NCBI GenBank assembly: GCA_049515655.1
Contig: JBEKTW010000001.1
Coordinates: 419 to 64,418 of the forward strand
DNA: 64,000 nucleotides
Direction: 5' to 3'
From: Bacteroidota bacterium
Lineage (GTDB): Bacteria; Bacteroidota; Ignavibacteria; UBA10030; SZUA-254
In this document: positions 6,844 through 28,832 of the stretch, piece by piece
Position numbering within the stretch: position 1 is the stretch's first letter
Layout: each line of letters begins with the position of its first letter
Notes under the pieces: generated by a model
The model's database searches: none
Told to the model about the DNA's origin: nothing
What the model saw: only the letters and a program-made list of their open reading frames with translations
Position numbers and translations under genes: made by a program

Positions 6844-7727
6844 GGCTCATTCCCCTGGCGTTCCTCGCCCTCGGTTTGGTCATCGCATTCCCCGCGGGTC
6901 AAGATCGTCCGGACATTGTGGTCGGGAATCCCGTATTCATGTTCCAGGACACGATTCCAGCCAGAAAGGATTCCGCGGTTGCCCGGGCGGATACGATCTC
7001 TTTTGCATCGATGAGAAAAGTCAGCAACTATGCATTCAGCTCGGGGGAATACTTGAAGTTCGAAGTGAAGTATGGTTTTATCTCCGCTGGCGATGCAGTT
7101 ATGAAAATCTCCGACACCGTCTATTCCAACGGCCGCAAGTGTTTCAAGATAGAATTCCAGGTTGACTCGAAGCCGTTTTTCAACTGGATCTACAGGGTCA
7201 AAGACCGGTACAGCACCATCGTCGATTCCGAAGGGGTCTTTCCCTGGAGGTTCGAGCAGCATATCCGGGAAGGCAACTTCCGGCGGGACTTCACCGCCGA
7301 GTTTGACCAGATCAATCATGTCGCGAAAACGTCGGAAGGGTCGCACCGGATACCGGCGTATGTTCAGGACATCATGTCGGCGTTTTATTTCACTCGGTTG
7401 GTCGATTTTTCCAATTACCATCCCGGACAGAAACTCCATCTGCAAAACTTCTATAAAGATTCCACGTATGAGCTTGATGTGAAGTTTAAAGGACGGCAAA
7501 CCATTGATGTCGCGGCCGGGACATTCAACTGCATTGTTGTCGAGCCGCTGGCACGGGAAGGCGGATTGTTCAAGAGCGATGGTCATGTCTATGTGTGGCT
7601 CACCGATGATGAACGGAAACTTCCCGTCAAGGTCAGCACGCAGATCATCATTGGCTCAATAGATTCGGAACTAACGGAGTATCGTGGGATCAACGGTATC
7701 ATTTCGGCCAAAGTCAAGGAAGAGTAA
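6840..7727 (+). CDS. secreted DUF3108-like protein
   Basis: Start chosen at MRLIPLAFLALGLVIAFPAG, a signal peptide. The internal EYLKFEVKYGFISAGDAVMKI segment is DUF3108-like. Translationally coupled to both neighbours. Confidence 0.55.
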   Translation: MRLIPLAFLALGLVIAFPAGQDRPDIVVGNPVFMFQDTIPARKDSAVARADTISFASMRKVSNYAFSSGEYLKFEVKYGFISAGDAVMKISDTVYSNGRKCFKIEFQVDSKPFFNWIYRVKDRYSTIVDSEGVFPWRFEQHIREGNFRRDFTAEFDQINHVAKTSEGSHRIPAYVQDIMSAFYFTRLVDFSNYHPGQKLHLQNFYKDSTYELDVKFKGRQTIDVAAGTFNCIVVEPLAREGGLFKSDGHVYVWLTDDERKLPVKVSTQIIIGSIDSELTEYRGINGIISAKVKEE

Positions 7728-7730
7728 GCC

Positions 7731-8684
7731 ATGCCAAAATATAAACAGGTGGATTTGACGAACGTCAAGACAATTTCGATTCTGCGGCGAAAGAGCAAGG
7801 TACACCCCGGGGATTTCGCGAAAGTGTTTGAGCCATCCCGCCAGACATTTCCGGAGTTTGTTCGATCGTTGCCGCGCATTCTGGCGGCGGAGGATTTGCG
7901 CCGATTCGTCGAGAGCGTTGTGGGGGCCTACCGGCGTAAAAAGCCCGTCATCGCCTTGATCGGCGCTCATGTGGTCAAGGTTGGGTTGAATCCCCTGATG
8001 ATCGACATGGTCAAGCGCAGGATTATTACAAGTGTGAGCATGAACAGCGCCGCGGCGATTCACGATGTCGAGACCGCGATGTGGGGGCAGACGTCGGAAG
8101 ATGTGGAAGCGAGTATTCTCAACGGGACGTTCGGGATGTCGAAAGAGACGGGTGAATTCATCAACGGAGTTCTCGGACACGCGATGGTGAGCGACGACGC
8201 CGGGTACGGTGAAGCGTTGGGGAAGGCGCTCCAGAGGGCTCCCCTTAGAAAGATGAGTCTCCTGGCGACCTGTTATCGACTGGGCGTACCCGCCACCGTG
8301 CACGCTGCGATCGGAACGGACATTGTGCATCAACAGCCGACGATGGATGGGGCCGCAACCGGTGAAATGACGTTTCGCGATTTCAAGGTGCTTTGCAACG
8401 AAGTGAAAAACCTGCGCGGCGGCGGTGTTGTCATGAACATCGGCTCGGCGGTGGTCTTGCCCGAAGTGTTTTTGAAAGCCCTCACTGTCGTTCGAAATCT
8501 CGGTTTCAAAGCTCAGGGATTCAACACGGCCAATTTCGACATGATTCAGCATTACCGGCCGCGCATGAATATTGTGCTTCGGCCGACGAAAAACCACGGG
8601 AAAGGATATTGTTTTACCGGACATCATGAAATCATGATACCACTACTCTTCGCGATGATCAAGGACCGACTGAAGACCCGATGA
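7731..8684 (+). CDS. deoxyhypusine-synthase-like protein (DHS family)
   Basis: 317 aa. KKPVIALIGAHVVKVG...GGGVVMNIGSAVVLPEVF resembles the NAD-binding core of deoxyhypusine synthase-like proteins. Assigned from memory of the family, not a search. Confidence 0.45.
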   Translation: MPKYKQVDLTNVKTISILRRKSKVHPGDFAKVFEPSRQTFPEFVRSLPRILAAEDLRRFVESVVGAYRRKKPVIALIGAHVVKVGLNPLMIDMVKRRIITSVSMNSAAAIHDVETAMWGQTSEDVEASILNGTFGMSKETGEFINGVLGHAMVSDDAGYGEALGKALQRAPLRKMSLLATCYRLGVPATVHAAIGTDIVHQQPTMDGAATGEMTFRDFKVLCNEVKNLRGGGVVMNIGSAVVLPEVFLKALTVVRNLGFKAQGFNTANFDMIQHYRPRMNIVLRPTKNHGKGYCFTGHHEIMIPLLFAMIKDRLKTR

Positions 8685-9646
8685 ACGAACCGGGGAATCC
8701 GATAGAACCACATCCCCAAACGGCCTTCGCCGGGGTACCTCATCAAGAGCTTTCATTCCTCGAGAAGTACGGCATTTCTCCCGTCATTTTTGGACTTGCT
8801 TCCGTCGTTCTCGTTTTTTTTCTCTATGAGATCGTCGGCGGGACTCTCACGTTTCTATTCTTCGGTGTAAAGTTGACGACGGAAAATGCCACCGGTTTCA
8901 GGGTTGCCACTGCGATCGGACAATGTGCGCTTATTCTCCTTCCGACGATCGCCCTGGCCCGGTTGGCGACCTCCAAACCCGCGCAGTACCTCCGGCTCGG
9001 GTTCCCGCAGCCCCTGGTGTTTGTTCCCCCGATCATTGGAATTTTTTCCCTCCAACAGATGCTCCAGGTCTATCTGGTATTCCAGGAGAAGATTCCCCTG
9101 CCGCAGCGTCTTTTGCCGGTCATCAAGCAATTGAAGGAATTGGTCGAAGAGGCGTATAGAATTCTTGTCAGCTCAAACTCCATCCCGGAGCTGCTGTTTG
9201 TTGTCGTTATCGTGGCGTTTATTCCCGCGATCGTCGAAGAACTCATGTTTCGCGGGTTGATACAACGGAGCTTTGAAAAGGGGCTTGGTCCCTTGAGCGG
9301 CGTTGTTCTCACCGGGGTCATCTTTGGGGCCTACCATCTGAACCCATTCGCGTTTCTTCCGCTGGCCGCACTCGGTGTGTATCTCGGTTTTCTAGCTCTG
9401 CGGGCGAACAGCATCTGGGTTTCGGCCGCCGCGCATTTTTTCAACAACGCGACTGCTTCCCTCGCGGTCTATCTTCACTATGACGATGATGCTATTGTCA
9501 CCGGCAATCCGGGAGCCATGCCGGTGGGAATTCTTTTATTGACATTCTTGGCTTTCACCCTGCTATTTCTTGGATCGACATATTGGTTTGTCCGCATGAC
9601 TGCACAGAAGGAAGAAACTTCACCACCTGAGAAAGGAGTGGCATGA
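8681..9646 (+). CDS. CPBP (CAAX protease/Abi) family intramembrane metalloprotease
   Basis: Multi-TM protein with EExxxR (IVEELMFRGLIQ) and FxxxH (FGAYHL) motifs and the HFFNN motif characteristic of CPBP proteases. ATGA overlap with the upstream gene. Confidence 0.75.
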   Translation: MNEPGNPIEPHPQTAFAGVPHQELSFLEKYGISPVIFGLASVVLVFFLYEIVGGTLTFLFFGVKLTTENATGFRVATAIGQCALILLPTIALARLATSKPAQYLRLGFPQPLVFVPPIIGIFSLQQMLQVYLVFQEKIPLPQRLLPVIKQLKELVEEAYRILVSSNSIPELLFVVVIVAFIPAIVEELMFRGLIQRSFEKGLGPLSGVVLTGVIFGAYHLNPFAFLPLAALGVYLGFLALRANSIWVSAAAHFFNNATASLAVYLHYDDDAIVTGNPGAMPVGILLLTFLAFTLLFLGSTYWFVRMTAQKEETSPPEKGVA

Positions 9647-15151: not shown

Positions 15152-17005
15152 ATGAACGCCTTGCCCCTTGTTATTGCTGCCTTGTGCGTTATGGCGATCG
15201 CGTATCGTTATTACGGCGCGTTCCTCGCCGCGAAGGTTGTCGCCCTTGACGACGCGCGGGTAACGCCGGCGCATACGTTGTACGACGGTCAGAACTATCA
15301 TCCCACCAACAAATGGGTCTTGTTCGGACATCATTTCGCCGCCATATCCGGCGCGGGCCCGCTCATCGGGCCTGTGCTTGCGGCCCAGTTTGGATTCCTC
15401 CCGGGGTATTTGTGGCTGCTGATCGGCGTGTGTCTTGGCGGGGCAGTGCATGACTTTGTGATTCTTTCTGCGTCAATCAGGAGAAAAGGGAAATCGCTCG
15501 CCGAGATAGCCCGCAATGAGATCAGTCCGCTCGCCGGAATCATCGGCTCGGTCGCGATTCTTATCATCGTTGTGATTGCCCTTGCAGGTCTTGGCCTGGC
15601 TGTTGTGAATGCGCTGAGAGACAGCGCGTGGGGCACATTTACCATCGGCATGACCATTCCTGTTGCATTGTTTGTCGGACTTTGGATGTACCGCATCCGC
15701 CCGGGAAAGATTGTCGAGGCAAGCGTGATCGGTGTCGTGGCGGTCGTAGCCGCCGTCGTCGCCGGGGCGTGGATTCCGCAGTCGTCACTCGGGCAGTACT
15801 TCACGCTGTCACGAGAGGGTATCATTATTTCAATTGCAGTGTATGGATTCATTGCATCCGTCCTGCCGGTGTGGCTTTTGCTCGCTCCGCGGGATTATTT
15901 GAGCTCCTACATGAAAATAGGAACAATCGCCGCCCTCATCGTGGGTGTTATTGTCGTGCATCCCGACCTGAAAATGCCCGCGATGACGCAATTCGTGAAT
16001 GGCGGGGGTCCGATCGTCTCCGGAAAATTGTTTCCCTTTGTCTTCATCACCATTGCCTGTGGAGCGATCTCGGGGTTCCACGCGCTCGTGTCGTCCGGGA
16101 CGACTCCGAAGATGCTCAACCGTGAATCCGACGCGCGGATGATCGGCTACGGCGCGATGCTCATGGAAGGGGTCGTCGGAATTATTTCTTTGATCGCGGC
16201 ATGCTCGCTTTTTCCCGGAGATTATTTTGCCATCAACGCCTCGCCGGAAAAATTCGCAGCGCTTGGTTTACCGACCGTAAACCTCAGTCAGCTTTCTCAG
16301 GAGGTGGGGGAGAAGCTCGTTGCGCGGCCGGGGGGAGCTGTTTCGCTGGCGGTCGGCTTCGCGCAGATCTTTTCGGGTATCCCTGGCATGCGCAGCCTCA
16401 TGTCCTACTGGTATCATTTTGCGATCATGTTCGAGGCGCTGTTCATCCTCACGACGATCGATGCGGGGACCCGCATAGCGAGATTTCTCGTCCAGGAATT
16501 TGTAGGGAAAGTGTGGAAGCCGTTTGAGCGGACGAACTGGATGCCTGGAGCATTCATCGCGACCGCGGTGTCTGTCTTCGCCTGGGCCTATTTCATCTGG
16601 ACGGGAAGCATCAATACGATCTGGCCCATGTTCGGGACGGCAAACCAGTTGCTCGCGAGCGTCGCGCTTGCAGTGGGAACGAGCGCGATTATCAATTCGG
16701 GGAAGTCGCGCTACGCCTGGGTGACGCTGGTCCCCATGTTGTTTGTCGCAACGACGACATTGACGGCGTGCTGGTTGAATATTACCGATAGCTTTCTGCC
16801 GCTCATAAGGAACCCGGGGACGGAGCTGCAGGGCTCCGTCGATGCGATCCTGACTGCCGTTATCATGATATGCGCGGCGATCGTGCTGGTCGAGGCATTC
16901 CGGCGGTGGTACAGGGTGCTCGTCAAGCACGAATATTTGGTCGCGGGTGAGGTTATGTACGCCACTGACAGCAAGTTTACTCCTCCCGATTTTGGCTGCT
17001 GCTGA
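15152..17005 (+). CDS. cstA: carbon starvation protein A (peptide/pyruvate transporter family)
   Basis: 617-aa polytopic membrane protein. The N-terminus [29 protein letters not shown] and [19 protein letters not shown] are typical of CstA. Confidence 0.9.
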
Positions 17006-17334
17006 CCGGGACAACACCGTTCCTTCCCCGTTACCCTGAGCAAGTCCTGAGCGACCCCGAGCGAGCGTAGCGAGTCGAGGGGGAGTCGAAGGACGAGTCG
17101 AGGGGTGTCCGTCGGGTGGCCGGTCAGGGGACCGGCCTCTACGGCAGGGAAGCGCTTGCGGTGCGTTCTCCATCTCGATGACGCACACGCTTGACTTTTT
17201 AGGGTGTGCTTATTGTATTTACTCAACGCACTGAGTAGATTATCTCAATGTATTGAGTAAGTACGATGCCAAAAAGAAGGAATTTTGGCGCAAACAGCGC
17301 GGACTCAGTCGCTCAGGGAGGGCACGTGATCGCT

Positions 17335-18324
17335 CTATTTCTTTCCAATAATCTGCGTCACACCGAATGCCGTTTCTCTCCTGACAATCTTCGATAAGCC
17401 GGCCTCCTCCATCCATGACCGCACCTCGGATTCCGTATATGTATCTCCGGATCCTGTCCCGACGAGCATGTTCAGGGCGAAGAAGGCCCCGTGCAGGGGG
17501 GCCGTCCGGTCATCATCCATGATGAAATCCTGCACCACGACCCGCCCGTTCGGATTCAGAGCTCTCGCGCATTTCTTGATGAGCTTCCGGTTTTCGCTCT
17601 CGGAATTGCTGTGGACGATCGCGGAAAGAAACACTATGTCAAACCCCCTCCCGAGATCGTCCATCAGGTAATCGCCGGCTTGCAGCTCGACTTTCCCGGA
17701 GAGTTTCGCCTGCCTCACATACCGCTTCGTCAGCGGAAGAACATTCGGAAGGTCAAAAACGGTTGCAGTGATGCCTTCCTTCGCTTTCACAAAAGCCATT
17801 GCAAACGCGCCCGAGCCGCTGCCGACATCAAGCACGCGGGACACGCTCGAGAGGTCCATTTGAGCAACGACTGCCGGAGCCTGCTTCGCGGCCCGGTCGT
17901 GCATCGCAGCTATGAACGCGGTGAGCCACGTGTCGCCCCGGCTATTTATTTCCGGTCGCACTGCGACCGAGGTGCCTTTCCTAACTGCGGCAGTGAGTGT
18001 TGTCCATGTGTCCCACAGGTGAACGGTGTGCATCAAGCCGGATGTAAATTCCGGTTTACCCTTCACCAGAAATCGGGAGGCGACGGGGGTATTTTGGAAT
18101 CTTCCGTTCTTTTTTACCAGCATCTTCATCGCACAGAGAGCGTTCATCAATCTGTCCGTGGCGCGCGGGTCGGTCTTCAGCGCTCTTGCAACTTCCGAAG
18201 ATGACCTCTTCCGGTTGCCCAATTCGGTGAACACGCCGAGTTCGAATGCCGTCAGTAGAATCCGGCTGCTCTGAAAACGATATGCGATTTCTCTGATGAT
18301 GTTTGGAGATAAGGACTCCGTCAT
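17335..18324 (-). CDS. class I SAM-dependent O-methyltransferase (COMT-like, with dimerisation domain)
   Basis: 329 aa. N-terminal winged-helix dimerisation region, and the SAM motif VLDVGSGSGAFAMAF plus DIVFLSAIVH, as in plant and bacterial O-methyltransferases. Confidence 0.8.
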   Translation of the reverse strand: MTESLSPNIIREIAYRFQSSRILLTAFELGVFTELGNRKRSSSEVARALKTDPRATDRLMNALCAMKMLVKKNGRFQNTPVASRFLVKGKPEFTSGLMHTVHLWDTWTTLTAAVRKGTSVAVRPEINSRGDTWLTAFIAAMHDRAAKQAPAVVAQMDLSSVSRVLDVGSGSGAFAMAFVKAKEGITATVFDLPNVLPLTKRYVRQAKLSGKVELQAGDYLMDDLGRGFDIVFLSAIVHSNSESENRKLIKKCARALNPNGRVVVQDFIMDDDRTAPLHGAFFALNMLVGTGSGDTYTESEVRSWMEEAGLSKIVRRETAFGVTQIIGKK

Positions 18325-18641
18325 TGGTCATCGGTCATTGGTTGTTGGCTCTTAATTGAAAGTTGTCAGTTCTTGGTTGTTAGTTCTTAGTTGTTGGTCA
18401 CTAGTCAATAGTCATTCGTCATTGCTCATTGATCATTGCTTCGGGCTGTTGGCCTTTAGCTATTAGCTCTCAATTCAAAGTTAAAAAGTCAAAATTAAAA
18501 AACGCCTTCACATATCTCATAATCTCAACTACTCCATTAATCCATTTCTCCAACGATCATCTCGCCGTTTCACCCTTTCACCGGTTCTCCCCTTCACCCT
18601 TCGCCGATTCTCCCCATCACCTATCACCTACAATCTACCAC
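18325..18641 (-). repeat. intergenic repeat family 1, copy C (reverse orientation, so the same polarity relative to the downstream O-methyltransferase gene)
   Basis: The reverse complement reads ggtggtagattgtaggtgataggtga...gttgagattatgagatatgtgaaggcgttttttaattttgactttttaactttgaattgagagctaatagctaaaggccaacagcccgaagcaatgatcaatgagcaatgacgaatgac..., about 85-90% identical to copy B in the core. Confidence 0.7.
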
Positions 18642-21530
18642 CTACTTCCGTACTTCACTCGAAATCCATTCGAGGTACTTTTCCATCCTTGTGAGAAAAT
18701 TCAAATACGCCGTCGACCATTCGACAGGACTGGCCGGCTGGGATTTCCCCACCACATCCTGGAATAACTTGGCGACCACTACGGCAACTTTCTTTCTCCC
18801 TTCTTCCACGACCGCTTCCACGTCCGACGAATAAAAAACCTTCAGCGTATTGATGTCCCACCTCACGCGGGACTCGGGGGTGTGCTTCGCGAAGAACGAG
18901 AGGTCGGTCTTATCGCCGCCCGACATCTGGTAAATCAAGAGATCCCATTTGTGCATGTTGTCGCTGAAATTTTTCTCGTTTTGACAAAAGTCAATACGCA
19001 AACGCGACGCGGTCTGCTCCGTAGCGAGTGTGTGCCGGAACAGCGCTTCGCCCCCGACGTACTGGCTTAGCAAATCGATGTCAGTCCAGAGGCCGAGGAC
19101 GCGATTCACCGCAACGTAGGTTTCCAGCTCATAATTTCGTCCGCTCGCCAGCGCCTTTGAGCCGGCTTGCTGCTTCTCGAGCATTTTCATCTTAACTTCC
19201 GCCTCAATATCGCCTTTGGTCCGCTCGGTTTTGAACGTGTCTTCAGCTATCGACGGGGGAGGGGGCCCTTTCCGCGTATGTTCGAACAGTGGCGCGCGCT
19301 GGTGCCATTCCAACTGGTCGAACTTCTTGGCTGAGCCAGAGAACGAAGTGGTTGTCGTCGCGTGACCTTTGAGAAGCGTGAGCAGATTCGTGAATAGCCT
19401 GTCCTTGTATCGTGTTTGAAAATGGCTCATGTCGGCAAGGATATACACTTCTTCCTCAGCGGAGGCGAGGACCGATGCCAGAAGTCGCATGATAAACTGT
19501 TCTCCCGCTTTCTTGTCGTCGATCGGACGCATGGTGTAGTCGACACCCGACATCGTCGTATCGAAGATGATCGCCTTTTTCCGTCTTCCCACAAATCCCT
19601 GCGGCAAGCCGACTTCCACGTTGCGAATGCCGTGCAGCCGGAGCTGGAGTTTTGTCGAGAGTGTCGGACCGGGAAACGGCACGACGACACCGATGTCCCC
19701 GGCGATTCGATGCGGCTGCAGCAAGGCGTTCTTCACGCACTCGATCGTTTTCTTCGTCTGGAGGTCGTTGAACGGAAGGATCTTCTTTCTCCCGATATAT
19801 TGGCGGCATTTCGAATGAAGGTCGGTTGTGTCGATGAAATAGATTGTTCCGCGCGGCTTCACGGAAGCAGGGAGACTGATTTTTTCGGGAAACAATTTGG
19901 AAAGAAAAAAGTGAGAGAACTGCGGCTTCTCCGAATCCGGCGGAGAGAGAAAAACCGACGATTGTTGCTGCTGTTCTTTCCATTCAAAGAGCTGTGCGAG
20001 CTCGCGGGTTCCGGCAACCTGCACAAAGATGTCCTGCTGCAGCCAGCTCTGCGCCAGCTCCGATTTGGAGCAGGATTCCGGTTCGAGCTGAAATGGGTCT
20101 CCCGCGACGACCATCTGCCCCGACGAGCGAAGGGCGAGGACGGCAAGATGCGCCAGGTTGACGCGTTCCGCATTGTCGATGATAACAACGTCGAATTGCT
20201 GCGCACTAAAATGAGGGTCGGCAAGTGCCGTCGCGACCGTTGCGATGACCAGAGGTTTTGTCCGCAGCAGGTCGGAACGGTCGACCTTCAGGTATTCGTC
20301 CGCAGTCTGCATCACCCGGTCAATACCGCCAAGTTCGGTGATACGCTTCAGGGCGGATTGGTATTCCCTCAACCGTTCCGGCGTGACCGGAGCGTTGTTC
20401 TCCAGCTTTGATATCTCCGAGGCGATATTCTGTTGAATCGCCTGCAGTCTTTTTTGAGACGCGACTTTTTCGTCGCACTGTTTCTGCGTGACGACGGACT
20501 CATCTCTGCTGAAACCTTTCTTCATCCGTTCAAGCATGGAGGCGTTCTTCACCCGGTTGAGAGCATCCCGCAATTTCAGCAGTTCCTCGGAAATCTGAAG
20601 AACCTGCTGTTTCTTCTCGTCGAGCCTTTTGTTGAGGTCATCAAGTCGCGCACTGAAGTCTTCATGGAGGACCTGTTTAATTCTCGTCGACCGGTATGTG
20701 TCAAGCAGCGTGAAGACCTCCGGAAATTTCCTTCTCGTCTCGGCGTGAAGCGCCGAGGACTGGAGTTCAAGGGATACCTGACCGACTGTGGCAGAGTTCA
20801 GATCGAGCGGAAACCCTGCGCGCAGTGCGGAAGGAAGAATATTCACTCCGATCTGGTCGCCCGCGCGTGAAATTTCTTCCAGAAGGCCGTCGGCTCGCTC
20901 GCAGGTCTGCGTCAGATAGAGTACTCTTTTTCCGGCTTTCACGAAGTTCACGGTCGCCGAAGCCAGGATCTCCGACTCACCGGATCCGGATGGTCCCCAG
21001 AGAAACGTGACGCTGTTCCGTATCATTTTCCCGACCGCGTCCTGCTGATGGGGTGGCATGTCCGGAGGGAAGAGAGGCTCGACCGTCCCCTCGACGCCCA
21101 AGTTCTCTTCAAGTCCGAACAGCATCGAAGCGATCGGAGGCGGATCCTCGATTGAAGAAAGCAAGCCGATGACGGGTTTCATCTCTTCATCGAAATTCCA
21201 CGAGCACCGTACTTCGGGAATCACATGTCCGACATCCACCGGCAGCGCGACGACGACGAACTGGTTGCTGACGCTGACGATGCAGCCCTTCACCACGACC
21301 GGGTCCGAGTGCCCGAGCGTAAACGTGGCCTGGGTGACTGCCTGCAGCCACATATCCTCGGGAACTTCGAAGCGGTAGTAGTAATACTCGGCAAACGGGC
21401 CGAGGAACTCGCCGCTCACGAGTGTCGCCCCCCGGCGCGTGGTATTAAGCTGGTCGAGTTCGCCCTGAAGCGCCTGTGAAAGGATACCGTAAAGAGAACG
21501 AACCGCTTCTGCCCGCTGTTCTGAATTCAT
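18642..21530 (-). CDS. Upf1-like SF1B helicase homologue with degenerate ATPase motifs (pseudo-helicase) and a novel C-terminal extension
   Basis: 962 aa. Motif Q-Ia PHQQDAVGKMIRNSVTFLWGPSGSGES (Walker A GPPGTGKT becomes GPSGSGES, lysine to glutamate). Walker B VVIIDNAERV (catalytic glutamate becomes asparagine). Motif III GDPFQLEP is intact. Motif V/VI-like GVVVPF...AIIFDTT...RLLASVLASAEEEVYIL. There is an approximately 230-aa coiled-coil insert between Walker A and B, and an uncharacterised C-terminal tail of about 300 aa. Confidence 0.75.
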   Translation of the reverse strand: MNSEQRAEAVRSLYGILSQALQGELDQLNTTRRGATLVSGEFLGPFAEYYYYRFEVPEDMWLQAVTQATFTLGHSDPVVVKGCIVSVSNQFVVVALPVDVGHVIPEVRCSWNFDEEMKPVIGLLSSIEDPPPIASMLFGLEENLGVEGTVEPLFPPDMPPHQQDAVGKMIRNSVTFLWGPSGSGESEILASATVNFVKAGKRVLYLTQTCERADGLLEEISRAGDQIGVNILPSALRAGFPLDLNSATVGQVSLELQSSALHAETRRKFPEVFTLLDTYRSTRIKQVLHEDFSARLDDLNKRLDEKKQQVLQISEELLKLRDALNRVKNASMLERMKKGFSRDESVVTQKQCDEKVASQKRLQAIQQNIASEISKLENNAPVTPERLREYQSALKRITELGGIDRVMQTADEYLKVDRSDLLRTKPLVIATVATALADPHFSAQQFDVVIIDNAERVNLAHLAVLALRSSGQMVVAGDPFQLEPESCSKSELAQSWLQQDIFVQVAGTRELAQLFEWKEQQQQSSVFLSPPDSEKPQFSHFFLSKLFPEKISLPASVKPRGTIYFIDTTDLHSKCRQYIGRKKILPFNDLQTKKTIECVKNALLQPHRIAGDIGVVVPFPGPTLSTKLQLRLHGIRNVEVGLPQGFVGRRKKAIIFDTTMSGVDYTMRPIDDKKAGEQFIMRLLASVLASAEEEVYILADMSHFQTRYKDRLFTNLLTLLKGHATTTTSFSGSAKKFDQLEWHQRAPLFEHTRKGPPPPSIAEDTFKTERTKGDIEAEVKMKMLEKQQAGSKALASGRNYELETYVAVNRVLGLWTDIDLLSQYVGGEALFRHTLATEQTASRLRIDFCQNEKNFSDNMHKWDLLIYQMSGGDKTDLSFFAKHTPESRVRWDINTLKVFYSSDVEAVVEEGRKKVAVVVAKLFQDVVGKSQPASPVEWSTAYLNFLTRMEKYLEWISSEVRK

Positions 21531-21643
21531 GCCTGCTCCGTGCTATTATGAGCGACGTGAAAGCGGAAAGAATTCGTGAGGGGGCAGCCCTCAATCCGGG
21601 AAGAGTCGGGGAAACGGGAATCGTGTAATCTCTTGCGCACGGC

Positions 21644-21937
21644 CTAGAGTGATCTCCAGACATTCCATGCCAGGACAAGCCAGCCGGCGAGAAAGCAAAG
21701 TCCTCCCACAGGTGTGATTGCCCCGAGCCAGCGGATGTCGGTCAGACTGAGGGCGTAAAGACTTCCGGAAAAGAGGATCGTTCCTCCGACGAAAAAGCAT
21801 TTCATGTCAAGCTTTCTCTCCATATTCCACACTTGCAAGAGTATGAACTCCTCCCCGGATCCTATAGTCAAGGACGACTTGCATCCATTTGGGTTTGCAG
21901 CAACCCGCAAGGTCGTTGAGGATATGATTGGCCGCAT
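21644..21937 (-). pseudogene. DUF423 (YgdD-family) membrane protein, C-terminal half only
   Basis: [49 protein letters not shown] matches the C-terminal two TM helices of the approximately 125-aa DUF423 family. The expected N-terminal half is missing, and the upstream in-frame sequence is non-hydrophobic and overlaps queF. Confidence 0.4.
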
Positions 21938-22253
21938 GTTCCTGATAGATACCGACGTTGCGATAACTGAGCAGATAATACTTCAATGAACGCAATTCGA
22001 TGAGGAATTTGTCGGGGATGTAGTTGACTTTGACCGTCCCGAAATCGGGCAAGCCAGACCAGGGGCAGACGGCTGTAAATTCATCGGTATCGATGTTGAT
22101 TATTGCATCCTTTCCCAGGTACTCATACGGAAACGAATGAAGAACGCCCGGGTCGATTGACTCGGCGGTTTCCACATCGTAGCGCCTGTCGAGCGGTTGG
22201 AACTGCACATTGGCCGCAGCGGATGCCCGCTTTGATTGTTGCTTTTTCCTCAT
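21807..22253 (-). CDS. queF: NADPH-dependent 7-cyano-7-deazaguanine (preQ0) reductase, unimodular type
   Basis: 148 aa. Catalytic Cys in [14 protein letters not shown] and the QueF motif [14 protein letters not shown] (E(S/L)K(S/A)LK(L/Y)Y). Confidence 0.8.
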
Positions 22254-22764
22254 TTTCTTGCTACTTTCCCTACTGAAAACTCGTACTGTTTCTCAGTCGT
22301 TCTCTAACAATATACGAGTTTTTAGTGTTGAAGTCCATGTAAGCTCAAGTTTGTCTTACGTAGAAGGATATTCATGGTAAGTCAATTCTTTGACAAAGTG
22401 GATCGACATCAGAACAAACATCATCTCGTGGCACCCGGGAGGAGATTTTGTCGCCTAATCGAAAGAAATCATTCCCCCGGACTCGCGACGCACATGCCGC
22501 ACTCATCAAAAGTGATGACAATTCCGTTCATTTCAATTCCTTATTTCATTTCCACGGGGAAGATGTCCTGGGAGATGATCGCGGGCACATTGAAGTTAAT
22601 GAAAAGAAAACCATTTTGACGGGTGGCGATCATTGACTCCGGTGGTTAGCAAAATGGAAAGAATTGCTGTGATGATGATCAATCATGTGATCTTCATGGT
22701 TGCATATTCAACGACATTTCGATATATTTTTTGAGTGGCGGTCATTTATAACCGGTGATATCGA

Positions 22765-25059
22765 TTGCAGGATAACGAAGACAAAATACAAGCGGCGAGG
22801 CAAGCGGCGGTAGAAGACGAGATACGTCACATTGAGCAGGACCTGGAACCGCGCGCCCTTGAGCTTGCCGGTCAATGGTTGAAGCAGGAGGATCGTCTCC
22901 GCCAGCAGGAGTTGCAGGCCTCCGAAATTGAACGTCGCCGGGAAGAAGGTGTTCTCCAGGGGCGGCTTCAGGATTTTACCCGCAAGCTCGAGGAGGGACG
23001 AAAGAGAAGGGAAGACGCGCGCCGGCGTGCGGAGGAAGAACGTCTAAGGGCTGAAGAAGAACGAAAGAGATTAGAGCAGGAAAAACTGCCAAAACCTGAA
23101 CCTTTGAAAGAACAACCGCAGCCGTCGGCCAAGAAGGCAGCTCAGGAGGATGCGATCTGGGGATCGGTGGAACAGGCGGCGGAAGAAGTTCACGTCGAGG
23201 CGCCGAAAGCAACAGACGCGCCGAGACCAACAGACGCGCTCCTCAATCGGGCCCGGGAGTTTTTCTCCCAAGGTGATGTTGAGAATGCTGCCGCTGTGAT
23301 TGCCAGGGCACTGGAGCTTGACCCCTCGCACGAGGCCGCCTTGAAATTTCAAAAGGAAATTGCACCAGGGCGAGCAGCTGCAACGGAGGCTGCGCCAGTC
23401 GAAGCTGCCGCCCAGGAAGAGACTGAAGCTCCTCCCAAGGCGAAGCCCAAATTGTCGAAGAAGACCGTCACCAGATTGGTCTGGATAGCCGGGGGGGCGA
23501 TACTTCTCGGCGTGGCTGTCGTGCTGTTCTTCCGTTTCAAGAGCACACTATTTCCACGCAATGTTTCTATCGCAGTCATGCCCTTCACCGATGGTAGCGC
23601 TGCTTCTGCTGGGAGCGCCATCGGCTCGTCACTCGCGCAGGAAATTGTGAGTCGCCTGGAGCATTTGAAGTCCGTGAGCGTGATGGGGTTCTCTTCATCG
23701 CAGGCAGTGGCGCGCTCGGCATCCGACGCGCCGCATGCCGTCTTTGACCTGGGGTACCCTGTCATCCTCGAAGGGAAAATCAGGATGGGGGAGGGAAGCT
23801 ACGTCGTGGATGTGAAGATATCGGATTCCGTGGGCGCAACGCAGTGGTCACACTCGTATGAGAAAACTGCGGATCAACTGGCACAGCTTCCGAGTGAAAT
23901 TGTTGCGCAAATCGTGGACTCGTATGGTCTTGCGCTCGACGCCCAGAGCAAAACCTTCCTCTCCGCGGAGGTCACGTCGAACGGCAACGCCTATACGGCA
24001 TACCTCCAGGGACTTGCCCTTCTTCAACATCATGATGCCGACAGCGCACAGAGAGCGCTCGAGCTATTTCAGCAGGCTATCGATCAGGATAAGGAATTCA
24101 TGGGAGTGCTGGCGGAGGCATCGCTGGCGGTCATAGCGAAAGCTGAGTACAGCGGGAACGCGGATGAGAGCACCCTTGCGCACGCGGAGCAGTTGGCCCG
24201 CGCCTGCATGACGGCAGATGCATCTGTTGTCGAGGCGCATGTAGCGCTGGGGAAAATATTCGGTCTTCGAAAGCAGTACGATGCCGCCCTCAAGGAATTT
24301 GACGGGGCATTGGAGCAGTCGCCGAACAATACCGAAGCACTTGCCGCGAAGGCCCGCATCTATCTCGAAATCGGAAAATACGACGATGCCACGGACGCAT
24401 TGACTCGTGCAACGGAGCTGAACCCCCGCGACCCCGCGATCCTGGAGTTATTTGCCTTCGCCAATCAGCTCAAGAACGACCCGCGTGAGGCGAGCCGGTA
24501 CCACGAGATCGCTCTGCCGGTTTCCGAAGACTCGACGCGATACCTGACCGGGCCGATGGCCGATGCCATTCTGTTTGACCCCGATATGATTTTGAGTTAC
24601 GGTGGGCGCGTGGCGGCGGCGCTCGAACACAACATTACGTCCGACCCCACTGACTATGTGGACATGTATCGGCTTGGTCGTCTCCTCCAGGTGAGCGGGA
24701 AGGTCCCCGAGGCGTCGGAAATGTTGGGAAGACTTTCGGAGCTGCTGCGCAGAGATCTTCGTGTTCATCCGCAGAATGCCAATGCCATGGTCTGTCTTGG
24801 TCTTGCGTTGACCCGGTTGGGCAAGTTCCCTGAAGCCGCGGACCTTGCCAAGAAGGCATTGGTGGTGGGCAAGTCGGATCCCGGGATTCCGTACAAAGTG
24901 GCACAGATCTATGCTCTTCAGAAAAATCCCGAAGCTCTACAGATTCTACATGATGCAGTTGCAGGACAATTCAGGCTGGCCGAACTAACAAACGGCGATT
25001 TCTATAATTTCCGTGATAACCAGGATTTTTATTCAACTATTCAGTTGTCATCGAAATAG
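22765..25059 (+). CDS. single-pass membrane protein with charged cytoplasmic coiled-coil and C-terminal TPR domain (paralogue 1)
   Basis: 764 aa. Glu/Arg-rich coiled coil (RRREEGV...RRRAEEERLRAEEERKRLEQEK), a TPR-like unit (...ALELDPSHEAALKFQKEI), TM LVWIAGGAILLGVAVVLFF, and a C-terminal about 180 aa recognisably similar to the C-terminus of the next gene (…RYLTGPMADAIL… vs …RYLVGPVADAIL…). Confidence 0.65.
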   Translation: MQDNEDKIQAARQAAVEDEIRHIEQDLEPRALELAGQWLKQEDRLRQQELQASEIERRREEGVLQGRLQDFTRKLEEGRKRREDARRRAEEERLRAEEERKRLEQEKLPKPEPLKEQPQPSAKKAAQEDAIWGSVEQAAEEVHVEAPKATDAPRPTDALLNRAREFFSQGDVENAAAVIARALELDPSHEAALKFQKEIAPGRAAATEAAPVEAAAQEETEAPPKAKPKLSKKTVTRLVWIAGGAILLGVAVVLFFRFKSTLFPRNVSIAVMPFTDGSAASAGSAIGSSLAQEIVSRLEHLKSVSVMGFSSSQAVARSASDAPHAVFDLGYPVILEGKIRMGEGSYVVDVKISDSVGATQWSHSYEKTADQLAQLPSEIVAQIVDSYGLALDAQSKTFLSAEVTSNGNAYTAYLQGLALLQHHDADSAQRALELFQQAIDQDKEFMGVLAEASLAVIAKAEYSGNADESTLAHAEQLARACMTADASVVEAHVALGKIFGLRKQYDAALKEFDGALEQSPNNTEALAAKARIYLEIGKYDDATDALTRATELNPRDPAILELFAFANQLKNDPREASRYHEIALPVSEDSTRYLTGPMADAILFDPDMILSYGGRVAAALEHNITSDPTDYVDMYRLGRLLQVSGKVPEASEMLGRLSELLRRDLRVHPQNANAMVCLGLALTRLGKFPEAADLAKKALVVGKSDPGIPYKVAQIYALQKNPEALQILHDAVAGQFRLAELTNGDFYNFRDNQDFYSTIQLSSK

Positions 25060-25065
25060 GAACAT

Positions 25066-27558
25066 ATGGCAAACAATCCATCTCCAGAAGACCAACAAAA
25101 ACGTGCCAATGACTACCTGATCGTTGTCCCCGATTTTATCAGGTTGAAGGATTACGACCTGGCACTCCTGCAAGTCGAACGCGCCCTTTCCATCGATCCC
25201 GGCAATGCCAAGGCCCTCGAGTACAGGAAGCGCATCATCGCCATCCAGGGGCGCCCTGCGCAGCCCCCTTCTCCTCCTCCCACGGCTGAAGTTAAACCGG
25301 ATGAAAAAGAAATCCTCCAGAGTCGTAAGCAGGAAAAATTGCGGGAGCTGGAGGAAGAGCGGAGAAGATTGGAGAAGATCAGGCAGGAATTCGAGGAACT
25401 CCAGCGGCAGGAGGAGGAGCTTCATAGAAAGGAGGAGGAGGAACGAAAACGGCGCATCGAGGAAGTTAGGAAAGTAGAGGAACAACGGCGCCTAGAGGAG
25501 GAGGAACGGCGGCAACTCCTGGAACTTAAGAGAAAAGAGGAAGAACAAAAACGACAGGAGGAGATGAGTAGAAAAAAGGAGGAAGAAGAACGTCTGCGCC
25601 GTGAGGAAGAAGAGCGGAAAAGACAGGAGGAACTGCGAAAGAAAGAGGAAGAAGAGGAACGGAGAAAACAAGAAGAATTGAAAAGGAAAGAGGAGGAAGA
25701 GCGGAAAAGGCAGGAGGAACTGCGAAAGAAGCAGGAAGAAGAGGAACGGAGAAAGCAGGAGGAACTGAAAAGGAAAGAGGAGGAAGAGCGGAAAAGGCAG
25801 GAGGAACTGCGAAGGAAGCAGGAAGAAGAAGAACGGAAAAAACAGGAAGAACTGAAGAGGAAACAGGAAGAAGAGCGCAGGAGGCAGGAAGAAGTCCGGA
25901 AAAAGCAGGAGGAAGAACGGCAGCGGAAAATCCAGGAACTGCAATCTCAGCTTGAAGGCCTGAAGCAGGAAGAAGAGCGGCAAAAGAAGCTGGAGGAAGA
26001 GGCCAGGATAAAACAACAGGAACAGGAAAAACGGCGACACGAGGAGCAGTCGCGCAGACATGAAGAAGAACGTCGGAGGGCTGAACAGCAGAAAAGAAAA
26101 GCCGCCGAACACAAGGCGAAAGAGGAGGAACAGAAGCGGAAGGAAGAGGAACTCCGCCGTCGCGAGGTCGAGCACTTGATCCAGATGGATCCGCTCAGGC
26201 GCCTTGAGGAAGAGACGCGTCTCGCGAAAGAAAAGAAAGACCGCGTCCATGCTCAAATCACAGTCGCGGAGGATTTCTTTAGCTCCGGCAACTATGAACA
26301 GGCAATGGCGGAATTGACGAAGATCTTGGAAGTCGACCCCTCGTATCCGCGGGCGTTGACGCTTCGTCTCCGCATAAAGCAAGCCGAGGAGAAACACAAG
26401 GAACGAGCGACAGCGAAGAATGGCGAAAAAACAGAACCGGTTGTGGAGACCGCTGCGGTGGTAGAGCCCGTGATCATAGAGAAGAATAAGGCTATGAGAA
26501 TCGTGAAGTGGACCGGAGGTGTGGTTCTCATCATCGTCGTCGGCATCATTGTCATGACGCAAATGAGGAGACGAAGTGGCCTGGAAGTCGCGCCCCAGAG
26601 CAAGCCGGCAGCCGAAGGCACGGTGGCGAAGCCTTCACCGGAGACGACAAAGACGCCGATCGCTACACCTGCCAGCGTTGTGCCGACCGTTACGGCGGAG
26701 GAACACGTCGCCCGCGCAAATCTTTTCATCCAGCATAGGTCGTATCAATCTGCGTTGCAGGAATTCGACAGCGCGGCCGCGCTTGCTCCGAAGAGGGTCG
26801 AGACGTTTGTCTCTCAAGCCGATGTCGATCTCAAGGTGGGCAAGTATCCCGACGCGATTAAAGCCCTCTCCCACGCAGCCGAACTTGTACCTCGTGATAC
26901 AACAATTCTTCTGATGACCGCCTTTGCCCACTACCTGAACGGTGCCTACGAAGACGGTTTCAAGTATCACGAGCAGGTATTGGCCCTAACGGTGGATTCA
27001 ATCAGGTACCTCGTGGGACCCGTTGCCGACGCGATTCTCTCCAGCAAGGCGCTCCTTGCAAAATATGGCGGTCGCGTCAAAGCCGCCTTTGAAGGAAGCA
27101 TGAGCGGAGCTCCCAACGACTTTGTCAACAGGTATCGCTATGCGAGACTCCTGCTGGCACTCGGCAGTACGAAAGAAGCGAATGACGTCTTGAAAAAAAA
27201 TGTCGACTACCTTGTTGAGGAATACCGGAATCATCCGGACGACGGGCTGATCACAATGTATCTCGCCCTCTCCATGACGCGGCAAGGACATTTTTCAGAG
27301 GCGGAAGGATTCGCGAAAGATGCCAAGGACCTTGCCCGGGGAAATCCGGAAATTCTCTATAAGATCGCCCAGATGTATGCACTCCAAATGCATTCGTCCC
27401 GGGGACAGGCAACCATCGCCCAAATGAAGAAGAAAGCGCTGCAGTCCGTTCACGAAGCTGTGAACCTGCGATTCATACTGAATGAACTAACCAACGCGGA
27501 CCTGTACAGCGTTTATGGCAAGGATTTCGTCGTCGCCGCTCGGCTCCCGCTAAAGTGA
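25066..27558 (+). CDS. single-pass membrane protein with highly repetitive E/R/K coiled-coil and C-terminal TPR domain (paralogue 2)
   Basis: 830 aa. N-terminal TPR-like unit (LLQVERALSIDPGNAKALEYRKRI), about 300 aa of (EEERKRQEELRKKQEEEERRKQEELKRK)n, a TM (VVLIIVVGIIVMTQM), and a C-terminal domain paralogous to the gene at 22765. Confidence 0.65.
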   Translation: MANNPSPEDQQKRANDYLIVVPDFIRLKDYDLALLQVERALSIDPGNAKALEYRKRIIAIQGRPAQPPSPPPTAEVKPDEKEILQSRKQEKLRELEEERRRLEKIRQEFEELQRQEEELHRKEEEERKRRIEEVRKVEEQRRLEEEERRQLLELKRKEEEQKRQEEMSRKKEEEERLRREEEERKRQEELRKKEEEEERRKQEELKRKEEEERKRQEELRKKQEEEERRKQEELKRKEEEERKRQEELRRKQEEEERKKQEELKRKQEEERRRQEEVRKKQEEERQRKIQELQSQLEGLKQEEERQKKLEEEARIKQQEQEKRRHEEQSRRHEEERRRAEQQKRKAAEHKAKEEEQKRKEEELRRREVEHLIQMDPLRRLEEETRLAKEKKDRVHAQITVAEDFFSSGNYEQAMAELTKILEVDPSYPRALTLRLRIKQAEEKHKERATAKNGEKTEPVVETAAVVEPVIIEKNKAMRIVKWTGGVVLIIVVGIIVMTQMRRRSGLEVAPQSKPAAEGTVAKPSPETTKTPIATPASVVPTVTAEEHVARANLFIQHRSYQSALQEFDSAAALAPKRVETFVSQADVDLKVGKYPDAIKALSHAAELVPRDTTILLMTAFAHYLNGAYEDGFKYHEQVLALTVDSIRYLVGPVADAILSSKALLAKYGGRVKAAFEGSMSGAPNDFVNRYRYARLLLALGSTKEANDVLKKNVDYLVEEYRNHPDDGLITMYLALSMTRQGHFSEAEGFAKDAKDLARGNPEILYKIAQMYALQMHSSRGQATIAQMKKKALQSVHEAVNLRFILNELTNADLYSVYGKDFVVAARLPLK
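25540..25910 (+). repeat. near-perfect 60-bp tandem repeats (about 5-6 copies) inside the CDS
   Basis: Units such as aggaggaactgcgaaagaagcaggaagaagaggaacggagaaagcaggaggaactgaaaaggaaagaggaggaagagcggaaaagg recur with only a few substitutions. They encode 20-aa E/R/K repeats. Confidence 0.8.
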
Positions 27559-27602
27559 ACAACCGCCGGTACATTCGTTGAGAAGAACAACTTTGCATAT
27601 CC

Positions 27603-28832
27603 ATGAAAAACGAATCACCTCAACAAACTGAAAGCCCGAAGAAAAAAGCAAGTGAGCATCTCAGAAATGTCGACAGGCTGCTGAAAGCCGGCCAACACGC
27701 CGAGGCGCTCCAGGAGGTCGAACAGGCGCTTGAACTGGACCCAAACAATGCTTATGCGCTCGCCTATAAGCAACGGATTACACGAGCGATGGCACAAACG
27801 ACCCTGGCTCCTCCGCCGCCGATAAAACCTGAAGCAAAGGAACCACCCAGGGCTGAGGCGGTGCAGGGTACCCAGGAAGAAGCTGCCAGGAAATCACAGA
27901 GGAAGTTGGCGGCGATTGTGTTCACGGATATTGTAGCATACTCCGCGATCACACAACGAAGCGAGACCGGCGCTTTGCAGCTGCTCGAAGTCCATAATCG
28001 GATCCTCCGCCCCATTTTCCTCAAACATGAGGGCAATGTCGTCAAGACAATCGGGGATTCATTCCTTGTCGAATTTACAAGCGTCCTCCAGGCAGTCCGA
28101 TGTGCAATTGAAATCCAGGATTCGATCGCGCAGCATAACGCGACAGCGAGCGAGGAGCTTCAGATGAAAATCCGCATCGGCATTCACCTGGGCGATGTGG
28201 TGTACCAGGATAACGATATTTTCGGCGACGGTGTGAATATTGCTTCCCGGCTGCAGGAACGGGCGGATCCGGGTGGAATCTGTGTGTCGCAGGATGTCTA
28301 CAACCAAATACGAAATCGGGAGGGGTTCCACACCGAGTACATCGGGGAAACGGAACTCAAAAACATCCGGACTCCGATTTCATTGTACCATGTCCTGACC
28401 TCGGAGCAGGTCCAGCGCAAAGCATTCGATGCGGCAATCAACAAGGCTCATGAAGAAGGCATCGCGGCAGCGAGGGAAAAGAAACTCGAAGGATACCTTT
28501 CGCGTGCAGAAGAACTTATCGGTCAAAAATCATACGACGAGGCAATCATCGAAGCGATGAAACTGCAGGCACTGGACGCCCAGCACCCGCAAGCCAGGAG
28601 TCTGATCGAGCGTATACGCAAGGAGCGTCAGGAAGCTTGGAAAAAAGATGTCACTGAAGCGAAAAAGGTCCCGCGGCAAACTGTGCTTGAGATGTACGGG
28701 CGCGTCGTCCAACAAGTTAAGTCTGGAGAAAGCCTTACGCTGGAGGAAGACGCTCTGCTGAAGAACTTGAGAACCAACCTGCAGATATCTGAAGAAGAGG
28801 ACCGGACGATCGAGCAAGCGAATCATCCCTGA
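27603..28832 (+). CDS. class III adenylate/guanylate cyclase flanked by TPR-like units
   Basis: 409 aa. The cyclase-homology-domain core LAAIVFTDIVAYSAIT...KTIGDSFLVEF...IRIGIHLGDVVYQDNDIFGDGVNIASRL is framed by the same about 30-aa motif (…ALELDPNNAYALAYKQRI; …AMKLQALDAQHPQARSLIERI) found in the two upstream proteins. Confidence 0.8.
   Translation: MKNESPQQTESPKKKASEHLRNVDRLLKAGQHAEALQEVEQALELDPNNAYALAYKQRITRAMAQTTLAPPPPIKPEAKEPPRAEAVQGTQEEAARKSQRKLAAIVFTDIVAYSAITQRSETGALQLLEVHNRILRPIFLKHEGNVVKTIGDSFLVEFTSVLQAVRCAIEIQDSIAQHNATASEELQMKIRIGIHLGDVVYQDNDIFGDGVNIASRLQERADPGGICVSQDVYNQIRNREGFHTEYIGETELKNIRTPISLYHVLTSEQVQRKAFDAAINKAHEEGIAAAREKKLEGYLSRAEELIGQKSYDEAIIEAMKLQALDAQHPQARSLIERIRKERQEAWKKDVTEAKKVPRQTVLEMYGRVVQQVKSGESLTLEEDALLKNLRTNLQISEEEDRTIEQANHP

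Follow-up and report, generated by a model that had tools for sequence, protein, structure and literature searches.

A degenerate Upf1-like protein from Ignavibacteria, probably an ATPase-dead pseudo-helicase at the end point of a family-wide decay

The 64,000-nucleotide stretch of DNA analysed here, which we call the window, comes from an ignavibacterial member of the Bacteroidota (assembly GCA_049515655.1, contig JBEKTW010000001.1, positions 419 to 64,418 of the forward strand). Its minus strand carries, at 18642..21530, a complete open reading frame (ORF) with an ATG start, 962 amino acid codons and a stop. The encoded protein, the query of this study, is by fold a member of the Upf1-like helicases of superfamily 1B (SF1B), with two RecA-like domains, a barrel and stalk, and homology to AAA_11. 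The three marks of a pseudo-enzyme are all present, namely homology to an active family, loss of the catalytic residues and purifying selection. An absence of ATPase activity is predicted from the sequence, and we consider it probable that the query is an ATPase-dead pseudo-helicase of the Upf1/IGHMBP2 fold that is kept as a functional protein and stands at the end point of a stepwise decay running through its family. That family was previously undescribed, and the query clade is its most decayed member.

The assignment to the Upf1-like SF1B group, which had been proposed in an earlier note on this DNA, is borne out by profile, alignment and structure comparisons. The protein matches Pfam AAA_11 with 56.2 bits (cut-off 27) and, in part, the NCBIfam family TIGR00376 (IGHMBP2) over query residues 80-357, and the profile built from its family matches human UPF1 at E = 1.7e-16. 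No match was found at E <= 1 to AAA_12, the Pfam model of the second RecA domain (RecA2). An AlphaFold2 (AF2) model based on 49 homologues reached a pLDDT of 84.5 and a pTM of 0.85. When this model was used in Foldseek, it retrieved UPF1, IGHMBP2, SETX, Dna2, ZNFX1 and Aquarius with E ~1e-21, the TM scores normalised to these Upf1-like targets being 0.69 or lower. The modelling that the note had suggested thus finds the Upf1/IGHMBP2 fold.

The residues on which an SF1B motor depends are replaced in this fold. The degenerate Walker A motif (residues 179-186, 20973..20996, minus strand, as for all features of the gene given below) reads GPSGSGES, with Lys185 changed to Glu and Thr186 to Ser relative to the canonical GPPGTGKT. 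The degenerate Walker B motif (residues 450-455, 20166..20183) reads IIDNAE, where D452-N453 stands in place of the D-D or D-E of the family and the D-E of canonical relatives. In the HMMER alignment with UPF1, GPPGTGKT pairs with GPSGSGES and IDES with IDNA. At the motif IV position (PPDSE, residues 530-534, 19929..19943), TQYRM is lost and the equivalent of its arginine, residue 533, is Ser in the query and Ala or Thr across the family. Motif V (FVGRRK, residues 646-651, 19578..19595) lies within GFVGRRKK, as against the canonical FQGREK, and motif VI (RLLASVLASA, residues 682-691, 19458..19487) has lost the arginine finger of RLLNVALSR to Ser. Motif III (GDPFQL, residues 477-482, 20085..20102) is retained, and its D478 is invariant across the family.

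These assignments could have been misplaced if intact motifs lay elsewhere in the protein. A regular-expression scan of the whole query returned no GxxxxGK[ST], hydrophobic-DE, hydrophobic-D[DE], QYR or QGxE; the sole GK[ST] is a GKS at residue 928, within the all-alpha C-terminal domain. Alternative Walker motifs are thereby ruled out, and the placement of Walker A and B and the Lys-to-Glu change, as first proposed, agree with the UPF1 alignment. The Walker B asparagine is likewise real, although the change had been described as Glu to Asn and is better written as D/E to N, the immediate ancestor having had D-D or D-E. The claim that the Upf1/DNA2 core is kept holds for motif III and needs correction in other motifs: V and VI are degenerate, IV is gone and Ia has diverged (LTQTCERAD in the query versus VAPSNDxVD in the family).

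The roles of these residues are established for P-loop NTPases and SF1 helicases. The Walker A lysine contacts the nucleotide at its beta and gamma phosphates, Mg2+ is coordinated by the Walker A Thr/Ser together with the Walker B Asp, activation of the water falls to the Walker B Glu, and the arginines of motifs IV and VI stabilise the transition state. Since the Lys, the Glu and both arginines are gone, the query is predicted not to hydrolyse ATP, and since its P-loop now carries an acidic residue, it probably does not bind nucleotide either. Among the features expected of an active SF1B enzyme, it retains motif III (GDxxQL) and lacks the GxxxxGK[ST] of Walker A, the Walker B DE pair, the motif IV arginine, the motif V QGRE and the motif VI arginine; its RecA2 is not recognised by AAA_12 either. 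Because five catalytic motifs fall short, annotation of the query as a helicase is unwarranted.

The altered motifs are shared by close relatives. GES together with [DE]N occurs in P0002 (92% identity), in P0003 (85%) and in L008, a GTDB species representative (86%). Among the ~49 full-length metagenomic orthologues the combination is confined to the query, P0002 and P0003, and L008 is the fourth case. The sequences of this GES clade come from independent assemblies of different samples (L001-L003, L004 and L008), and their ORFs are all uninterrupted over 962 codons. Within the clade, the ratio of nonsynonymous to synonymous substitution rates (dN/dS, omega) was estimated by the Nei-Gojobori method at dS of 0.3-0.6. 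It is 0.10-0.13 overall, 0.12-0.22 in the two segments of the first RecA domain (RecA1) that carry the altered motifs, and 0.05-0.09 in RecA2 and the C-terminal domain. The earlier reading of the ORF as intact and not the product of a sequencing error is therefore upheld by the recurrence of the motifs in independent assemblies and by the low omega, and the check on orthologues that it called for shows the closest relatives keeping both substitutions, with no canonical motifs among them.

The query gene belongs to a family of ~950-residue proteins for which we kept 78 GTDB species loci, and no genome supplies two of them. The record titles are almost all those of Ignavibacteriota, Ignavibacteria or Bacteroidota metagenome-assembled genomes (MAGs). 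Motif states were scored in the 49 metagenomic orthologues and the 78 species loci. The motif VI arginine is absent from every one of the 76 loci scored at that position (Cys 57, Ser 10, Thr 7, Leu 2). Motif IV is SH[FY][AT]TTPKL in place of TQYRM, with QYRM present in the outgroups, and motif V is xGRR where the canonical form has QGRE. Walker B is DD in 54 of the 78 loci scored, DE in 12, HE in five, DN in three, EE in three and EN in one. Walker A, scored in 75, is GK[ST] in 64, GKR in four, GKA in one, [GS]TT in five and GES in one. The elements that are invariant in the family are non-catalytic: the barrel motif, the coiled-coil tip, motif III GDPFQL, the RecA2 motifs and a C-terminal GKxQPxNPxEWS...W.

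A neighbor-joining tree was rooted on the canonical relatives and used for its topology only, the motif states being taken from the separate family scoring. In this tree a long branch of its own leads to the GES clade, far from the clade with [GS]TT, which is nested deep within a GKT/VDEAQ group; the GKR clade stands apart from both. The position of the GES and [GS]TT clades apart from each other argues that the P-loop lysine was lost at least twice independently, as judged from the motif states on the tree. The second clade comprises L040, L041, L047, L057 and L071, with the helicase-like gene at ~6001-8862 in each. Its Walker A, GPS[LF]S[GS]TT, is always coupled to a Walker B in which Asp is replaced by His (VIVHEAQ), and it too is under purifying selection (omega ~0.10-0.15). 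Separately, L079-L085 form a divergent subfamily of ~900 residues at 29-31% identity that keeps GKT and DD and has lost motif V; its motif III is also lost, with GDPFQ replaced by ADVTEQ, which represents a different route of decay. Some of its host MAGs are labelled Chitinophagaceae.

Distant relatives were collected by an exhaustive representative search and aligned to the hidden Markov model of the family. Five of them (P0067-P0071) align end to end at ~28% identity, over query residues ~10-958, and carry all canonical SF1B motifs: WGPPGTGKT, IDEASM, GDPQQL, TQYRM, HTFQGREK and RLLNVALSR. Motifs IV, V and VI of P0067 align directly to those of SETX and UPF1, SETX having MQYRM and RRMNVGLTRAR. 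Two profile searches grade from these outgroups to the query. AAA_12 matches the canonical outgroups at E = 1e-24 to 1e-28, the family member P0028 at 2e-4 (below cut-off) and the query not at all. The PADLOC model of MkoA, the helicase of the Mokosh system, matches the outgroups at 1e-44 to 1e-53, the family member P0021 at 3e-12 and, again, the query not at all. Most of the invariant accessory motifs of the family are recognisable in the canonical outgroups too. The architecture as a whole thus goes back to an active helicase, and decay has been limited to the catalytic residues, the classical signature of a pseudo-enzyme.

Canonical relatives lie in variable neighbourhoods, beside defence-type genes (L086:1212-11384, L089:279-4954 and L088:2302-5949). 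The neighbours of P0071 are GmrSD, an OLD-like ATPase-nuclease, an abutting 988-residue N6/N4 methyltransferase and an SMC-like ATPase; the gene for P0070 overlaps a GmrSD gene, that for P0068 is followed by RadC, and the neighbourhood of P0075 is uninformative. From these four canonical-relative loci we infer that the family descends from a defence-type helicase. Those of P0071, P0070 and P0068 may represent defence modules, as yet uncharacterised, in which a helicase has an MkoA-like core and a phospholipase D (PLD) nuclease is missing.

The remaining architecture follows the Upf1 plan with additions. Residues 1-155 (21066..21530), delimited by the AF2 model, invariant columns and TIGR00376, comprise an N-terminal helix (residues 3-28), a beta-barrel (34-111) with an invariant YYRFE[IV]PE, and linker helices, and are equivalent to the 1B barrel and stalk of Upf1/IGHMBP2. 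The N-terminal part of RecA1 (residues 156-246, 20793..21065) contains the Q-motif region PPHQQDAV, and its C-terminal part spans residues 425-520 (19971..20258). Between them, the AF2 model and conserved columns place a helical and coiled-coil insertion (residues 247-424, 20259..20792) whose long antiparallel hairpin, 290-328 and 342-378, ends in a conserved tip, NASxLERMKKGFS, with K337 invariant. Such an insert had been predicted at about 230 residues; it is present, and its size is ~180 residues. The degenerate RecA2 (residues 521-720, 19371..19970), undetected by AAA_12, holds G[KR]K[KR]ILP[YF]N[ED] and D[YH]T[MV][RK]xIDD[KR], both inherited from canonical relatives.

The C-terminal region (residues 721-962, 18645..19370) had been described as a tail without domains, a description that does not survive. 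A disordered linker (residues 755-796) leads into a conserved all-alpha bundle (~800-961) that is confidently folded in the AF2 model, ends in ...GKSQPxxPxEWSTAYLNFL...W, and is found in the canonical full-length relatives as well; few parts of the protein are under tighter constraint (omega 0.05-0.09). The domain has no match in Pfam, and its profile searched against the PDB gave a best hit of E = 0.076, to a CAP helical domain. A dedicated AF2 model of the domain (pLDDT 73) found no structural relative in the PDB with Foldseek (best E 0.37, TM ~0.2).

We propose the following course of events for the pseudo-helicase. The starting point would be an active helicase that was akin to the MkoA core of Mokosh and already had the full-length architecture of the family. 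In a first step, its ancestor would have lost the gamma-phosphate arginines of motifs IV and VI, motif V would have passed from QGRE to xGRR, and Walker B would mostly have shifted from DE to DD. At the second stage, which most species would still occupy, GK[ST] and the Walker B Asp are retained and may provide residual nucleotide binding with little or no turnover, the nucleotide acting as a switch or structural ligand. In a third step, GKT would have become GES and D[DE] become [DE]N in the query clade, and the second clade would independently have acquired [GS]TT and HE, so that the nucleotide requirement became dispensable twice. Function would then reside in the conserved parts, that is, the barrel, the coiled-coil tip, motif III, the RecA2 surface motifs and the C-terminal bundle. 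With its barrel, prong and RecA cleft, the protein could hold single-stranded nucleic acid independently of ATP, and its coiled-coil tip and C-terminal bundle would be plausible sites for binding a partner. The query is thus most likely a non-motor nucleic-acid clamp or protein scaffold and not a translocase.

RecA1 was also compared among clades at similar dS (~0.5-0.7). Omega is 0.16 in the GES clade, 0.09-0.14 in the [GS]TT clade and 0.04-0.07 in most Lys-intact pairs, with 0.20-0.21 in one Lys-intact clade that has an EE Walker B. The pattern is compatible with a modest relaxation after loss of nucleotide use and is not decisive.

Several observations weigh against an inactive end point reached by decay of the pocket. 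GK[ST] and the Walker B Asp are kept together in about 85% of the species. Selection therefore still acts on the pocket across most of the family, and some members may be able to bind nucleoside triphosphates (NTPs) or to hydrolyse them slowly. The RecA1 omega of the Lys-less clades (0.09-0.16) is just modestly above that of most Lys-intact pairs. Clade-specific changes at family-conserved positions, 45 of 250, fall in all domains at 14-23% per region; the concentration in the ATP pocket that was looked for is not seen, and this even spread makes the query clade generally divergent on a long branch, rather than remodelled in the pocket only. The loss of activity is itself a prediction from the residues, a replacement arginine finger might in principle come from the Arg/Lys-rich motif V (GRRKK), and the clamp or scaffold role is assigned to a protein whose C-terminal domain has no structural relative in the Foldseek search of the PDB.

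The genes around the query bear on other explanations. Upstream and co-oriented lies queF (21807-22253), with a DUF423 remnant (21644-21805, minus strand) between it and the helicase-like gene; an O-methyltransferase gene (17335-18324) lies downstream, and farther away CstA and tetratricopeptide repeat (TPR) proteins are encoded on the opposite strand. The intergenic segment upstream of the helicase-like gene (21531..21643, minus strand) is partly conserved in the sister species and contains, at 21577-21593, a weak terminator-like hairpin between the DUF423 remnant and the helicase-like start. A scan for sigma-70-like promoters there found none, Bacteroidota-type promoters being outside the scope of that scan, and an Rfam scan of 17000-23000 returned nothing. 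Relative to the intact 122-residue gene of the sister species (L008:5519-5884), the DUF423 remnant has an in-frame internal deletion of ~207 nt and retains the start codon and the last ~50 codons; in the P0002 lineage (L001), ~225 nt are lost. The DUF423 gene is thus decaying beside the conserved helicase-like gene.

The window arrangement recurs only in the query clade (L001, L004 and L008), and queF adjoins the helicase-like gene in a single one of the 78 family loci, that of the sister species. In the rest of the family, a co-oriented ORF of 57 residues (orf57) lies ~221 bp upstream in 45 loci, and a CNNM/CBS/CorC gene lies ~330 bp downstream in 54 of the ~62 loci with enough flank; GH20, Hc1 and DUF72 genes are frequent neighbours. 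All five are absent from the window. The ancestral synteny is the 57-residue membrane ORF, the helicase-like gene and CNNM/CorC. The orf57 product (e.g., L019:5528-5698) has an N-terminal transmembrane helix and a near-invariant acidic tail, FFDSSxVADELFGDAFEELPDKP, and has no match in Pfam; a partnership with the pseudo-helicase is one possible reason for the linkage, mere conservation of gene order another. Two further features of the window were noted. The plus strand at 22765-28832 encodes TPR proteins of 764 and 830 residues and then a 409-residue TPR-adenylate/guanylate cyclase, genes that diverge in orientation from the queF/helicase-like group, the 764-residue TPR gene being syntenic in L001 and L008. 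The segment 30001-34000 has a G+C content of 0.43-0.45, against ~0.53 elsewhere in the window, and may have been acquired horizontally.

Against this background, other explanations can be weighed. The query might still be an NTPase or helicase with a non-canonical set of residues, in which the GRRKK arginines serve as fingers and another basic residue stands in for the lysine. Even the query clade retains motif III GDPFQL, the P-loop glycines (G179 and G184, both invariant) and a basic motif V, its RecA1 is still constrained, and most family members hold GK[ST] and the Asp. We nevertheless judge this improbable. In the query clade the P-loop lysine has become acidic, the Mg-coordinating Thr has become Ser, the second acidic residue of Walker B has become Asn and both arginines are absent; substitutions of the Walker A lysine abolish hydrolysis in P-loop NTPases. 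No other P-loop or DE box occurs anywhere in the protein, and where the clade has specifically gained Lys or Arg at family-conserved sites, these sites belong to the coiled coil and the C-terminal domain and are not close to the pocket in sequence. The main rival, in which motif V supplies the finger, may apply to the Lys-bearing members, which would then be slow enzymes, but it could not restore activity in the Lys-less query clade. A recently inactivated pseudogene, or an assembly or sequencing error, comes to mind because the source is a MAG and the neighbouring DUF423 gene has truly decayed; the same motif state in independent assemblies and ORFs that stay intact at dS of up to 0.6 under strong constraint effectively refute it, and its probability is next to nil.

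The earlier note had also linked the gene to queF and DUF423, and one could imagine that the helicase-like protein is co-transcribed with queF and works with it in queuosine/7-deazaguanine metabolism or a Dpd-like DNA modification. The three genes are indeed co-oriented with short gaps in the window, in L001 and in L008. The arrangement is, however, limited to the query clade, orf57 and CNNM/CorC flanking the gene elsewhere, the DUF423 gene in between is being deleted, the terminator-like hairpin precedes the helicase-like start, and no tgt or dpd genes occur among the neighbours scanned. We have rejected the functional linkage as very unlikely. Somewhat less remote, and still improbable, is that the family remains a component of defence against phages or mobile elements, an MkoA/CnuH-like helicase having decayed into a sensor or regulator. 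The canonical relatives adjoin GmrSD, OLD-like, methyltransferase and RadC genes and match the MkoA core strongly. Defence genes are typically patchy and fast-moving, whereas the synteny of this family is stable over dozens of species, with no genome supplying two of the 78 loci kept, and its neighbours are of the housekeeping type (CNNM/CorC, GH20, DUF72, Hc1), with no nuclease or effector partner. The query itself has no PADLOC match below E = 0.01; its membership in a known defence system was rejected, the weak LmuB and RecD matches (E ~0.01) arising from the coiled coil and the Walker B region only.

The pseudo-helicase that we favour can be set beside characterised systems. UPF1, IGHMBP2/SMUBP-2, SETX/Sen1 and Dna2 share its domain order, with a barrel on a stalk, RecA1 with a helical prong and RecA2. 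Compared with them, the query lacks the Walker A Lys, the Walker B Glu, the motif IV QYR Arg, the motif V QGRE and the motif VI Arg, and it has a much longer coiled-coil insert (~180 residues) and an extra C-terminal helical bundle. By sequence, and by way of the canonical outgroups, the nearest characterised prokaryotic relatives are the MkoA and MkoC helicase cores of Mokosh. Mokosh is an anti-phage defence system that combines a Upf1-like COG1112 helicase with a PLD nuclease, and mutation of the helicase ATP-binding site abolishes defence (doi 10.1101/2022.05.11.491447), so related proteins need that site. In the query, by contrast, the site is destroyed, there is no match to MkoA or MkoC, and the protein and its neighbours contain neither the PLD nuclease that defines Mokosh, as a separate gene or fused, nor the Ser/Thr kinase domain of its type I. 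The CnuH protein of type II/III CoCoNuT systems has an OB/barrel on stalk helices and, immediately following Walker A, a large insertion that is helical and in part a coiled coil (PMC11090510). The insert at 247-424 of the AF2 model, between Walker A and Walker B, matches this arrangement, as compared by description only; unlike in CoCoNuT, no McrBC-like CnuB/CnuC or winged helix-turn-helix nuclease CnuE adjoins the gene in the window or the family, and the catalytic motifs of the query are degenerate.

RecC of RecBCD and AddB of AddAB are pseudo-helicases. PriA of Deinococcus radiodurans is another (PMC4504706). Like the query, all three retain a helicase fold that has lost its motifs and is kept for a non-motor role. 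They differ in that PriA belongs to superfamily 2 and RecC and AddB are SF1A-like, with known roles and partners, whereas the query is a stand-alone SF1B/Upf1-like protein; unlike in those cases, extant lineages of its family represent one stage of the decay after another. Where bacterial Upf1-like proteins have been described to date, it has been as working motors of defence systems, Mokosh and CoCoNuT among them.

The result for the family is of more interest than that for the single gene, as a widely conserved group has lost both arginine fingers, has independently dropped the lysine in two lineages and is under strong purifying selection. One practical consequence is a warning for annotation, since such proteins are labelled 'AAA domain-containing protein' or helicase. 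The graded series from canonical through Arg-less to Lys-less members offers natural material with which to test which helicase functions survive without ATP, and the family is a candidate case of a defence-type helicase that was exapted, in a phylum studied very little, for a conserved role in the cell. We would go further only as a speculation that is more likely wrong than right: the Ignavibacteriota may have domesticated an MkoA-like defence helicase as a phylum-wide, single-copy, housekeeping clamp or scaffold that acts on RNA or single-stranded DNA independently of ATP, possibly with orf57 and/or CNNM/CorC, and their lineages may preserve the stages from motor to switch to scaffold. If so, the family would provide a natural series for how a helicase becomes a pseudo-enzyme.

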